NCBI GenBank assembly: GCA_943349045.1
Contig: CALQZC010000002.1
Location: forward strand, 1 to 52,398
DNA from: Candidatus Peribacteria bacterium
GTDB taxonomy: Bacteria > Patescibacteriota > Gracilibacteria > UBA1369 > UBA12463
Length of the DNA: 52,398 nt
Direction of reading: 5' to 3'
Shown: one piece after another, positions 2,405-38,818 of the stretch
Layout: the number at the start of each line of letters is the position of its first letter
Position numbering within the stretch: the stretch's first letter is position 1
Notes under the pieces: generated by a model
Told to the model about the DNA's origin: nothing
Databases searched by the model: none
What the model saw: only the letters and a program-made list of their open reading frames with translations
Program-made: the position numbers and the translations under genes

Positions 2405-3043
2405 ATGGACATTGTATTACTCGGCATTCAGGGCTCTGGAAAAGGAACACAGAGTAAATTTTTGCAGGAGCAGTACGGGCTCGTCTACTTCGAGACGGGA
2501 CGTGAACTTCGCAAACTCTCACAAGAAGAGTCTGAACTCGGACAGAAGGTAAAGTCGATTATCGAGGCGGGTCACCTCGTTCCAAGTGAGGTGGTCATGG
2601 ATATTATCGCCGACTTCATGGGAAAACTTCCTGACGGCGCGCAGGTCTTATTCGATGGCATTCCACGAAAAAAAGACCAGGCAGAACAGTTTGAGCAGGT
2701 TCTAAAAGAGGCCAGCCGAGACTTCACCTGTGTCTATATTACCCTGGAAAAAGAGGAGGCAGTTCGACGTCTCACCACTCGACGCATCTGCGAGAAGTGC
2801 AAGTCAGTCTATCCAGCAACATTCGCGGGTGACGCTTGTGCCGCATGTGGCGGAAAGCTCATCACTCGCTCGGACGACAATCCAGAAAGTATCAACAACC
2901 GAATCAACGCATTTTTCAACGAGACAACTCCGGTCATCGAAGATTACCGCGCACGCAATATGCTCGTCGAGGTCAACGGTCAGCAGGCAATCGAAGAGGT
3001 TACTGATGAACTTTTCAGCAAGCTCGATCCACTTCTCGCCTAA
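2405..3043 (+). CDS. adk: Adenylate kinase
   Basis: P-loop GIQGSGKGTQ and a zinc-type LID (CEKC...CAACGG). The start is 1 nt after the secY stop. Confidence 0.95.
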   Translation: MDIVLLGIQGSGKGTQSKFLQEQYGLVYFETGRELRKLSQEESELGQKVKSIIEAGHLVPSEVVMDIIADFMGKLPDGAQVLFDGIPRKKDQAEQFEQVLKEASRDFTCVYITLEKEEAVRRLTTRRICEKCKSVYPATFAGDACAACGGKLITRSDDNPESINNRINAFFNETTPVIEDYRARNMLVEVNGQQAIEEVTDELFSKLDPLLA

Positions 3044-15092: not shown

Positions 15093-15361
15093 ACATTGAT
15101 CTTCTCCAGCATCTTCAGCAATCCGGAAAACGTGATGTCACGCTCAAAGTAAAAGTCACGCCATCAGCACCACATGATGAAATTACCGGATTCATGAGTG
15201 ATGGAACGCTCAAAATTCGGATTCACGCAGCACCAGAACATGGAAAAGCAACAGCGCGACTTATCGCTTTCCTCAGCGAAGAACTCGAAACCAGCGAAGA
15301 AAATATTGAACTCGTATCCGGCCACACCAATACCCGCAAACAACTCGTCATCCATCTTTGA
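15089..15361 (+). CDS. yggU: YggU/DUF167 family protein
   Basis: 90 aa with the pattern LKVKVTPSAP.DEI.G.....LKIRI.A.PE.GKA...L..FL...L......I.LVSG.T...K. Its ATG overlaps the ATPase stop (ATGA). Confidence 0.75.
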   Translation: MNIDLLQHLQQSGKRDVTLKVKVTPSAPHDEITGFMSDGTLKIRIHAAPEHGKATARLIAFLSEELETSEENIELVSGHTNTRKQLVIHL

Positions 15362-15371
15362 AACACACGCC

Positions 15372-16241
15372 ATGATTCACAAACTCACGGACACCAGCTA
15401 CATCAAATATTTGCTCAACAAGTATACGACCACCAACGCCAAGAAAAAATTTGGTCAAAACTTTCTGATCAGCGAACATGTCCTCAATCAAATTATAGAG
15501 ACCGCACAGATCGAACCCACTGATACCATCGTAGAGATTGGCCCCGGACTTGGCGTCCTGACCCGAGAACTCTGTCTTCGCGCTGGTAAAATTATCTCAA
15601 TCGAAAAAGATCGTGACATGCTTCGAGTTCTCCAGGAAACCATTCTCGATGACACGCGCGGTGCACGAGAAAAAACAACCATCCTAGAACAAGACGCTCT
15701 GCGTTTCAACATTGAAACCATCAACACACCCTACAAGCTCGTCGCGAATCTTCCCTACAACGTCGCCACCGCAATTCTCCAAAACTTCCTCGTCAACACC
15801 GCACACACCAAACACCAGCCAACCCGCATCGCAGTACTCGTCCAAAAAGAAGTTGCAGAAAAAGCCTGCGCAAAGACGGGCGACCATAACGTTCTCTCGC
15901 TCACCCTCCAGCCATTTGGAAAACCAGAAATTATCGCCCACGTCCCACCCGGCTCGTTCTTTCCCTCCCCAAAAGTCACCTCATCCATCCTGCTCATCAC
16001 TCCCTACGAGACTCCCCTGCTTCCACAGGAGCTGACCAAGCCGTACTTCCGCTTCATCCACGCCGCCTTCTCCCAAAAACGTAAAATGCTCGGCAAAAGC
16101 CTCCAGCAAATCGCCTCAAAAGAGACGATCATCCAGCTTCTTACCAAAGCTAATATCCCCCCCGAAATTCGCCCCCAAGAGCTCACCCTCGAACACTGGC
16201 TCACCATCGCAAGTCTCGCAGGACAAAAGGGGCTATCTTGA
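15372..16241 (+). CDS. rsmA: 16S rRNA (adenine1518/1519-N6)-dimethyltransferase
   Basis: KKKFGQNFL, VEIGPGLGVLT and ANLPYNVAT motifs. I chose ATG 15372; the longer ORF-track start overlaps yggU. Confidence 0.9.
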   Translation: MIHKLTDTSYIKYLLNKYTTTNAKKKFGQNFLISEHVLNQIIETAQIEPTDTIVEIGPGLGVLTRELCLRAGKIISIEKDRDMLRVLQETILDDTRGAREKTTILEQDALRFNIETINTPYKLVANLPYNVATAILQNFLVNTAHTKHQPTRIAVLVQKEVAEKACAKTGDHNVLSLTLQPFGKPEIIAHVPPGSFFPSPKVTSSILLITPYETPLLPQELTKPYFRFIHAAFSQKRKMLGKSLQQIASKETIIQLLTKANIPPEIRPQELTLEHWLTIASLAGQKGLS

Positions 16242-16295
16242 AGCGATGCATTAAATATGCTACGATACACTCGACAAGTCGGGGCGTACTCGAAC

Positions 16296-16326
16296 AAAGA
16301 ACCACTCAATACTGAGTGGTTCTTTT
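16296..16326. terminator. Bidirectional hairpin terminator between rsmA and the tRNA-like gene
   Basis: Perfect 13-bp stem AAAGAACCACTCA / TGAGTGGTTCTTT with the loop ATAC. A T-run follows on the plus strand and TTTG follows on the minus strand. Confidence 0.7.
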
Positions 16327-16338
16327 ATATGCCAGAAA

Positions 16339-16410
16339 TGGTGGAGAGGACGGGAATCGAACCCGCCCGCCCGAATGACAAGTCGGGGCGTCTTAACCAT
16401 AAGCCTCCCC
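16339..16410 (-). tRNA. Non-canonical tRNA-like gene with alanine-type acceptor stem and encoded CCA
   Basis: The minus strand reads GGGGAGG CUUAUGGUUAAGACGC CCCGA CUUGUCAU UCGGG CGG GCGGG UUCGAUU CCCGU CCUCUCC A CCA. The T-arm and 7-bp acceptor stem (G3-U70, A73) are canonical. The D region is shortened, the anticodon loop has 8 nt and the variable region has 3 nt. Confidence 0.55.
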
Positions 16411-16569
16411 ACTGTCTGCCATCTCTGGCAAAAACCACGTTATCAAACCGACATTACAGGAATCTAACACAACCCTAACATAATCTTAAAACGGCTCACC
16501 AAAGCCAAAAAATAAACTATGCAACGAGAAAAATCATGCCAGAATCATCCTATGATCACCCATTCCTAG

Positions 16570-38742: not shown

Positions 38743-38818
38743 TGGTGCGCCCGGCAGGATTCGAACCTGCGGCCCCCAGCTCCGCAAGCTGATGCTCTAT
38801 CCCCTGAGCTACGAGCGC
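38743..38818 (-). tRNA. tRNA-Arg (anticodon GCG), CCA encoded
   Basis: A 76-nt canonical cloverleaf on the minus strand: GCGCTCG TA GCTC AGGGGATA GAGC A TCAGC TTGCGGA GCTGG GGGCC GCAGG TTCGAAT CCTGC CGGGCGC A CCA. Confidence 0.9.

Follow-up and report, generated by a model that had tools for sequence, protein, structure and literature searches.

What is a short gene that carries the alanine identity elements of a tRNA, together with a D arm and an anticodon loop that no ordinary tRNA would have? This question is raised by positions 16339–16410, on the minus strand, of a 52,398-nucleotide (nt) stretch of DNA, hereafter the window, which is contig 2 of the genome assembly of a Candidatus Peribacteria bacterium (GCA_943349045.1; 1.01 Mb in 54 contigs, 47% G+C). 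The first-pass annotation of the stretch had considered a decayed tRNA-Ala, a tRNA with an expanded anticodon loop, an assembly indel, and a tRNA-like domain that accepts alanine and has some other role. The analysis presented here supports the last of these. Judged from its sequence, the element is a real and conserved gene that encodes a compact tRNA mimic, and I consider it probable, with reservations that are set out below, that the mimic would be chargeable with alanine and controlled by a private antisense RNA, the two forming an RNA-only module that resembles a toxin-antitoxin pair.

Read on the minus strand, the gene possesses an acceptor stem of 7 base pairs (bp), GGGGAGG/CCUCUCC, with G1-C72, G2-C71, G3·U70 and G4-C69, followed by A73 and an encoded CCA. 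A "D" hairpin of 4 bp with a 4-nt loop (CUUA-UGGU-UAAG) abuts the acceptor stem without nucleotides 8–9, and leads through ACGC to an anticodon-like arm, in which CCCGA and UCGGG close the 8-nt loop CUUGUCAU. A variable region of 3 nt (CGG) then precedes a canonical T arm, GCGGG-UUCGAUU-CCCGU. The features that the first-pass annotation had described as canonical (the T arm, the CCA end, the four acceptor pairs and A73), as well as those it had described as aberrant (the D hairpin, the 8-nt loop and the short variable region), are all found base for base in the minus-strand letters. The minimum free energy fold of the mimic adopts an alternative, longer register of the arm with a bulged C (G22-C42...A28-U37), and the loop is unchanged.

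Standard search tools do not recognise this gene. As a check with ARAGORN had been proposed, I note that the program makes no call at the mimic and reports only a tRNA-Arg(GCG) in the window; likewise, Rfam 15 at gathering scores, RF00005 included, gives no match to the mimic, the sole match in the window being the same tRNA-Arg (38743–38818, minus strand, 66.4 bits), which is its only canonical tRNA. The best sub-threshold Rfam match of the mimic is to tRNA-Sec (26.7 bits, cut-off 47). The tmRNA (transfer-messenger RNA) model RF00023 gives 34.8 bits against a cut-off of 47, through the tRNA-like ends only, and scores the canonical tRNA-Ala(GGC) of the same genome above this, at 36.3 bits. A permuted tmRNA (RF04321) was ruled out, with 20.7 bits against 47 and a unit that is self-contained.

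Compared feature by feature with a canonical tRNA, the mimic has the 7-bp acceptor stem, the discriminator and the T arm with a UUCRANY loop (in the family alignment described below, 99.4% and 98.2% of the cells of these helices are paired), and it carries the whole identity set of alanyl-tRNA synthetase (AlaRS), namely G3·U70, A73, G1-C72 and G2-C71. It has no cloverleaf at gathering score or tRNA-finder call, no 5-bp stem with a 7-nt loop bearing U33 and a purine at 37, and no D arm joined via nucleotides 8–9 with a 4–5-nt or long variable region. Its acceptor and T arms resemble those of tRNA and tmRNA alike. At 72 nt and closed by a hairpin, it has none of the mRNA-like domain, resume codon, tag open reading frame (ORF) with its stop, and pseudoknots of a tmRNA, and it is present in five copies, where a genome has a single trans-translation RNA. 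The likeness to the tmRNA D-loop analogue that had been suggested for its D region is superficial, since this region is a covarying 4-bp hairpin and the tmRNA analogue is unpaired.

A standard tmRNA of ∼400–440 nt was identified above the cut-off in 33 of the 41 genomes searched (40 relatives and the present one), and in seven of the eight from the same genus; the mimic is not the tmRNA of this lineage. The ssrA check that had been proposed found no ssrA in the present assembly. Its absence here is most simply an assembly gap, because the relatives carry the gene and because missing tRNAs point the same way: 31 tRNAs were detected, with none for Phe, Tyr or Ile, despite a marker-gene completeness of "100%". 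Stable-RNA genes of this genome have probably been lost in assembly gaps. The canonical tRNA-Ala(UGC) that was to be searched for is present, together with tRNA-Ala(GGC), on contig 50, and SmpB is encoded on contig 15 (20514–20936, plus strand).

The mimic belongs to a family. A BLAST search, together with a covariance model (R1) derived from just two paralogues, both on contig 15, identified five copies in this genome: that of the window, the two on contig 15, and one each on contigs 12 and 40. R1 scores the window copy at 60.9 bits (E about 1e-12) and an improved model, R2, at 77 bits; among the canonical tRNAs of the genome, tRNA-Ala(UGC) scores highest with R2, at 45.2 bits. This is a family of RNAs of 70–74 nt, and 20 of 60 relatives have matches of 70–73 nt at 38 bits or more, in many cases with several in one genome. 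In a sample of the class, R2 detects the family in ∼15 of 150 genomes, and three genomes from other classes of the phylum possess it as well. The distribution is patchy at every rank. The 80 loci listed by a pattern scan of viral contigs, once searched with a covariance model, contained no more than the ends of ordinary tRNAs or tmRNAs.

I used an alignment of 79 members to assess the structure. The alignment is model-based, and its fit therefore favours the structure, but the margin is nonetheless large: 96.4% of cells are paired, against 63.9% after shuffling, and covariation reaches a score of 0.771, compared with 0.168 for shuffled columns and no more than 0.105 with the partners slid. Compensatory changes are seen in 18 of the 21 pairs, and all four helices covary. 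The third acceptor pair is G·U in all 76 rows bearing letters there, and never G-C; G1-C72 is kept in 73 of 77 rows and G2-C71 in 76 of 77. Since G3·U70 is invariant and its two neighbours nearly so, the conserved part of the molecule is the set read by AlaRS, to which the T arm and the GG-bearing mini D hairpin are to be added as conserved features. An alanine-accepting domain with another role, as one of the initial interpretations had it, is thereby backed by the invariant identity set, and by D and anticodon arms that are conserved in a non-tRNA form. A decayed tRNA-Ala does not agree with a multi-copy family that shows compensatory changes in four helices and has a putative promoter and terminator of its own for each copy.

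The anticodon-like arm reads as conserved in its hairpin form, without the geometry of a tRNA. Its length varies between 5 and 9 bp, and its loop is of 7 nt (29 members), 8 nt (22) or 9 nt (11), with the consensus N-U-(U/C)-G-(A/U)-C-A; position 37 is mostly C, not a purine. With such variation in stem and loop and a C at 37, the notion of a tRNA with an expanded anticodon loop is unlikely. Many loops correspond to the CUUGCA loop of tRNA-Ala with one inserted base, and many hold UCGACA, to be compared with UUCGACA in the 5' region of the relatives' tmRNA. Among compact members the variable region is 2–3 nt, and the D hairpin has 4 bp with a 4–5-nt loop. ARAGORN misses the compact members. The D arm is of normal form in some members from outside the order, which the program takes for tRNA-Ser(tga), Thr(tgt), Leu(tag) or "???(cgtc)", despite their alanine acceptor.

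A 15-nt segment of the mimic occurs a second time in the locus, on the far side of a terminator-like hairpin, and this repeat leads to the proposed antisense partner. The features of the module are as follows.

16339–16410, minus strand: alanine-type tRNA mimic, 72 nt, from its sequence, the R1 and R2 scores and the family covariation.
16377–16391, minus strand: target segment DR1, nucleotides 20–34 of the mimic, ACGCCCCGACUUGUC, identical to 16273–16287.
16437–16445, minus strand: putative extended -10 of the mimic, TGATAACGT, with a predicted start at ∼16430.
16424–16430, minus strand: leader UGCCAGA, the presumed 5' end of the primary transcript, pairing with the trailer.
16330–16336, minus strand: trailer UCUGGCA, 2 nt past the CCA, complementary to the leader.
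16296–16325, both strands: shared bidirectional terminator-like hairpin, AAAGAACCACUC, a 6-nt loop and GAGUGGUUCUUU, from sequence and fold.
16273–16287, plus strand: antisense seed (reverse complement of DR2), GACAAGUCGGGGCGU, complementary to mimic nucleotides 20–34 over 15 of 15 nt.
16273–16330, plus strand: predicted antisense small RNA of ∼55–58 nt, in which a 5' seed of 15 nt and a linker of 8 nt precede the terminator hairpin, followed by a U-rich tail; both ends are predicted.
16238–16243 and 16261–16266, plus strand: putative antisense promoter, with -35 TTGAAG, a 17-nt spacer and -10 TACGAT, and a predicted start at ∼16273.

The target segment runs from the linker through the 5' strand of the anticodon-like stem into the loop, of which it includes the first six nucleotides, and is repeated exactly (16391–16377 at 16287–16273). 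The first-pass annotation recorded this repeat apart, and drew no link between the tRNA-like gene and an antisense partner. The repeat also disposes of an assembly indel in the loop, as the second copy of the 15-mer (16273–16287) has the same CTTGTC, and the same 8-nt loop is found, identical, in other genomes (loci L028 and L136).

The complementarity is private to each locus. Seed and mimic of the window would form a duplex of -34.6 kcal/mol, and over 50 loci the predicted duplexes have a median of -32.2 kcal/mol for cognate pairs, compared with -13.4 kcal/mol for non-cognate ones. A repeat scoring at least 11 is found within its own locus for 46 of 79 mimics, and in none of 395 pairings of a mimic with a foreign flank, where the maximum is 10. 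It always overlaps the loop and the adjoining 5' strand, at times the D hairpin also, and tracks the changes of the arm locus by locus. Among the 50 loci with a repeat scoring at least 10, 37 possess a strict opposite-strand TTGnnn-N16-18-TAnnnT (often TGnTATAAT), whose -10 ends 1–9 nt (mode 6–7) before the repeat. From this fixed spacing, transcription would be expected to start with the first nucleotide of the repeat, taken as its reverse complement, and to continue into the hairpin that both genes share.

The small RNA gene is not always convergent with that of the mimic; divergent-upstream, tandem-upstream and tandem-downstream arrangements are also found, and in all four the RNA is complementary to the loop and one strand of the arm. 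The divergent-upstream form has the same promoter-seed-terminator gene, in the tandem-upstream form an internal seed matches the loop and the 3' strand, and the tandem-downstream form, seen in other classes, consists of TTGAAA-17-TATAAT, the seed and a terminator of its own. That independent arrangements keep the complementarity argues for a functional RNA-RNA pair, and not for a recombination scar. The module has the parts of an antisense-controlled pair, that is a neighbouring small RNA gene with promoter, terminator and extended complementarity (promoters and ends being predicted), and this complementarity is kept by co-variation. The toxic peptide encoded by the target of a type I system is missing, as the 72-nt target has no reading frame.

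Transcription of the mimic itself can be outlined in similar terms. A block TGnTA(G/A)(T/C)GT is common to 20 aligned upstream regions, and is followed 6–9 nt later by the leader, TG(C/T)CAGA. In the window the predicted leader-trailer duplex has -13.6 kcal/mol; the family medians are -12.1 for cognate and -8.6 for non-cognate combinations, a modest contrast, given that the sequences themselves are conserved. The terminator-like hairpin is flanked by A and U runs on both sides, such that it could serve both convergent RNAs and the neighbouring gene ksgA, and most loci of the family have this element after the mimic.

Further repeats were noticed around this promoter. The trailer 9-mer TTCTGGCAT (16329–16337, minus strand) recurs at 16535–16543 on the same strand, ∼125 nt upstream of the mimic and just after a TTGACA-18-TAGGAT; this could be chance or the trace of an older copy. 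Between about -100 and -40 of ∼20 family loci there are repeated T(G/T)T(C/T)AGA-like boxes, along with a block, GTCAGAAAAATAGCAACAATTATTCAA, that is conserved in several genomes, and these may be regulator sites for the mimic promoter.

Two variants of the mimic deserve description. The contig-40 copy (2851–2948, minus strand; L015:1501–1598) is 98 nt long owing to a 26-nt insertion in the T loop, between UUC and AAUU, and its partner seed has two mismatches; this copy may be decaying, or may carry a mini-insertion. Group I introns occur in the T loop of tmRNA genes, but 26 nt is far below the size of an intron. At loci L134 (G039 contig 8) and L031 (G043 contig 9), a second mimic 3' end, from T arm to CCA, lies ∼58–82 nt past the CCA. 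Such duplicates are the classic footprint of integration at a tRNA-type gene, and mimics may double as attachment sites.

How would the two RNAs act? I propose that the mimic retains those parts of tRNA-Ala that are read by RNase P, by the CCA enzyme and above all by AlaRS, that its GG-containing mini D hairpin would serve the elbow, and that its decoding end has been replaced by a variable hairpin. It would be transcribed with the leader paired to the trailer, processed from its precursor in the manner of a tRNA (RNase P-type), and charged with alanine by AlaRS. A sigma-70-type promoter would drive the convergent antisense RNA of ∼55 nt, which would dock its single-stranded 5' tail on the anticodon-type loop, in a loop-linear fashion as in hok/sok and pMV158 RNAII, and would then invade the stem and unfold the arm. 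The mimic might in this way be masked or marked for decay; alternatively, pairing might assemble a two-piece RNA. A free alanyl-mimic could be expected to interfere with translation, either as a dead-end competitor in ribosome rescue or through misinsertion of alanine.

What such a pair would be for can be stated with less assurance. Its private specificities, the want of a nearby protein partner, the patchy distribution and the missing copy at the ksgA locus of four relatives all suggest a module of RNA only that would serve for addiction or regulation, akin to type I or type VIII toxin-antitoxin systems; I regard this as a serious possibility and not as the expected outcome. A more specific version is tentative: the toxin would be the alanine-charged mimic of tRNA or of the tRNA-like domain (TLD) of tmRNA, poisoning translation, and the antitoxin the short-lived private antisense RNA, in the service of addiction or abortive infection, with copies that are mutually orthogonal.

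Several points weigh against the proposal of an alanine-charged mimic under antisense control. Both transcripts, their ends and the charging are deduced from sequence, as distinct from the anatomy, the conservation, the covariation and the co-evolving complementarity, which are observed. A generic promoter and terminator scan of the window did not flag the mimic -10, the antisense promoter or the shared hairpin, and listed instead the TTGACA-18-TAGGAT further upstream (16576–16547). It missed the antisense promoter because only 8 of 12 consensus positions match, and in view of its silence the transcript ends given above are to be taken as inferences. The partner is undetected within ±440 nt in ∼15 of 83 members, the contig-12 copy of this genome included, and no more than 47 of 79 loops have a strict YUNR motif. 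Of the target-seed mismatches, 41 are transitions that keep an intermolecular G·U, 16 would create A·C, and 22 are transversions; this bias speaks for a maintained pairing, but may partly stem from the tolerance of G·U within the mimic's own stem. In addition, related genomes are not independent samples. The toxicity of the mimic is hypothetical, and a plain regulatory role would fit the same data.

Among other explanations, an RNA of this build might be a tmRNA without a coding sequence (CDS), that is an ssrA relative reduced to the TLD, which would act with SmpB on stalled ribosomes for tag-free rescue, or for its modulation or inhibition, the antisense RNA tuning its level. CDS-less tmRNAs do exist, and that of DS6A inhibits tmRNA in E. 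coli (PMC11915505). Alanine identity, T arm, a reduced GG-bearing D region, the lack of a usable anticodon, the local RF00023 match, the SmpB gene of this genome and the tmRNA-like UCGACA of many loops are all in its favour. However, the genome's own tRNA-Ala does equally well or better with RF00023, a covarying closed D hairpin and an anticodon-type arm occupy the place of SmpB on tmRNA, the arm differs in each of the five copies, and a standard tmRNA coexists in relatives; I consider this explanation unlikely. Somewhat more doubtful is a dedicated alanine donor for a non-ribosomal enzyme, such as a branch transferase of the Fem/MurM type or an alanyl-phosphatidylglycerol synthase, with antisense-regulated supply. 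Staphylococci offer a parallel in their non-proteinogenic tRNA-Gly. The invariant parts (G1-G2-G3·U70, A73, CCA and T arm) are those that such enzymes and AlaRS read, the decoding end being free, and FemAB-family genes are present in this genome. But these genes occur in 146 of 151 genomes of the class, against ∼15 of 150 for the mimic, so that Fem enzymes there evidently work without it; since FemAB is nearly universal, a correlation between the two is uninformative. Moreover, a donor demands neither several copies nor private antisense specificities, and the module is linked to neither a Fem gene nor another candidate. The RqcH/NFACT_N alanine-tailing idea was dropped, as this protein family was not found in the genome.

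The mimic could also be a working decoder, an alanine tRNA for non-alanine triplets (UGU here in register 1, UGA or CGA elsewhere) or for quadruplets (UGUC in the 8-nt loop), which would produce deliberate mistranslation or +1 frameshifting, gated by an antisense RNA that masks the anticodon. Here it is relevant that AlaRS ignores the anticodon and that anticodon variants of tRNA-Ala mistranslate (PMC10543346, PMC11415595), that natural dual-identity tRNAs such as tRNA-ProX are known in bacteria, that the members with a D arm which ARAGORN assigns to Ser(tga), Thr(tgt), Leu(tag) or (cgtc) bear G3·U70 and A73, and that the antisense seed always overlaps the loop. A stem of 5–9 bp and a loop of 7–9 nt that are not fixed, a position 37 that is mostly C, and the want in most members of nucleotides 8–9, of a normal D arm and of a normal variable region make a decoding role as doubtful as that of an alanine donor. 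Nor were frameshift sites or recoded genes encountered, in an analysis that made no search aimed at them. As for a mere relic, either a decayed tRNA-Ala or an assembly error, with the 15-nt repeat as an attachment (att)-type integration scar, tRNA and tmRNA genes are common integration sites, and the downstream 3'-end duplicates at L134 and L031 are of the classic att kind. The repeat in question is the 5' strand and loop, however, not the 3' end; it lies at a fixed distance from an opposite-strand promoter, its sequence changes together with that of its own gene across dozens of diverged loci, and it appears in four arrangements, inverted ones included. With compensatory covariation in all helices and an invariant G3·U70 besides, a relic is very improbable. 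Target-site duplication by a mobile 3' half was ruled out, because acceptor stems covary between loci. The antisense-controlled, alanine-chargeable mimic is the reading that I retain as the more probable.

The gene upstream of the antisense RNA is ksgA (15198–16241, plus strand), whose stop codon, 16239–16241, is inside the antisense -35. The closest homologues of its product belong to MAGs labelled Candidatus Peribacteria, Peregrinibacteria or Gracilibacteria, which places the genome among the CPR/Patescibacteria. The last ∼5–9 residues of KsgA are not conserved with relatives. From the position of the stop and this unconserved tail, the 3' end of ksgA seems to have received the module as an insertion, or to have been reshaped by it. 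The ksgA-pyrF locus of four close relatives has no module. A comparison of homologous loci had been suggested as a source of covariation, but none of those checked (L047–L050 and others) has a family member, and there is therefore no covariation to be had by synteny at this locus. Within ±1.5 kb of 38 loci, no protein family recurs beside the module, the neighbours being unrelated housekeeping genes, and Pfam and NCBIfam searches with the neighbouring ORFs of 136 and 191 amino acids gave nothing informative.

At some loci, paralogous proteins of 390–560 amino acids converge on mimic copies (L011:3545–5221 and L012:4824–6005, both plus strand and on contig 15, as well as L019 and L023). A CxxC-x17-CxxC zinc ribbon (...TTYSPDRPExxYCEKCYLEAVY) forms their C-terminus, and the final codons of their genes extend into the antisense promoter. 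A zinc-ribbon gene remnant past the repeat was considered for the window, where GYLEAMH is found in another frame, given that four close loci have a convergent gene for a CxxC-x17-CxxC protein ending in ...YCEKCYLEAVY, and was set aside. The DNA conserved past the repeat is now read as the antisense promoter (-35 TTGAAG), merely overlapped by the zinc-ribbon genes. With regard to the class as a whole, FemAB-family genes are usually present in one to three copies per genome, which suggests that branched cell-wall peptides are the rule there.

Full-text literature searches returned no description of such a tRNA-like RNA in Peregrinibacteria or Patescibacteria, or with an antisense partner. The surprise of this locus is a non-decoding, tRNA-shaped and presumably alanine-charged RNA, present in several copies in a genome of 1 Mb, each with a co-evolving antisense RNA, which is invisible to ARAGORN and Rfam 15. 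This RNA-only, two-gene module recurs in the ultra-small bacteria of the Candidate Phyla Radiation (CPR/Patescibacteria). If the mimic does interfere with translation or rescue under antisense control, this would add a new mechanism to RNA-based regulation or addiction, in a poorly understood and largely uncultured lineage. As ARAGORN calls members with a D arm Ser, Thr or Leu tRNAs, some CPR tRNA inventories, and inferences on codon usage drawn from them, may be wrong.

Compared with tRNA-Ala, the mimic shares the 7-bp acceptor with its identity set, of which G3:U70 suffices for recognition by AlaRS (PMC11415595), the T arm GGGUUCGAUUCCC and the GG of the D-type loop. It differs in having no nucleotides 8–9, a small D hairpin, a 2–3-nt variable region, an arm of 5–9 bp with a loop of 7–9 nt and usually a C at 37, as well as its own putative promoter, leader-trailer helix, terminator and private antisense partner. 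The dual-identity tRNAs (Streptomyces tRNA-ProX and tRNA-Ala anticodon variants; PMC11415595, PMC10543346) likewise combine the acceptor of one amino acid with the triplets of others, and misincorporation of alanine via an RNA with G3:U70 is possible (PMC10543346, PMC11415595). In contrast to them, the mimic has a non-canonical arm geometry, no dedicated synthetase and an antisense partner, and its decoding is putative.

Among catalogued objects, the closest to the mimic are nine tmRNAs that the 2025 tmRNA database lists as "Standard, no CDS" (PMC11915505). The CDS-less forms covered in that source comprise those of jakobid mitochondria, plastid genes of ∼65 bp and mycobacteriophage DS6A (PMC11915505; Jacob et al. 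2004 as cited there). Like the TLD of tmRNA and these forms, the mimic is a tRNA-shaped, presumably alanine-charged RNA without a usable anticodon or tag ORF, and the DS6A tmRNA, which inhibits the endogenous tmRNA in E. coli (PMC11915505), is a precedent that such an RNA can interfere with trans-translation. The mimic is however multi-copy, has a paired D hairpin, has a closed anticodon-type arm instead of the helix 2/SmpB site, and possesses an antisense partner, of which there is no report for the CDS-less forms treated in PMC11915505.

On the side of the partner, antisense RNAs that consist of a 5' tail and a terminator, and that pair in a loop-linear manner, are well established, as in hok/sok and in pMV158 RNAII (48 nt, with a 17-nt tail; PMC4485353). 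The partner proposed here has the same build as Sok, RNAII and the RNA-IN/RNA-OUT pair, namely a single-stranded 5' seed and an intrinsic terminator, and the target loop is often a YUNR U-turn. With convergent type I pairs of the bsrG/SR4 type it shares the convergent order, the common terminator and a specificity private to each pair (PMC4485353, PMC3834814). Unlike the targets of type I systems, the mimic is not an mRNA and encodes no toxin, but is tRNA-shaped and presumably aminoacylated. Unlike in classical antisense pairs, moreover, the partner is often encoded beside its target (divergent or tandem) and not opposite to it, which implies that complementarity is maintained by selection and not by overlap. 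The type VIII system CreT/CreA also consists of two RNA partners, with CreT acting on the translation apparatus (PMC10767807, PMC10097628); there, CreA represses the creT promoter via a CRISPR effector, whereas the module described here has no Cas genes, and its antisense RNA is proposed to pair directly with the mimic.

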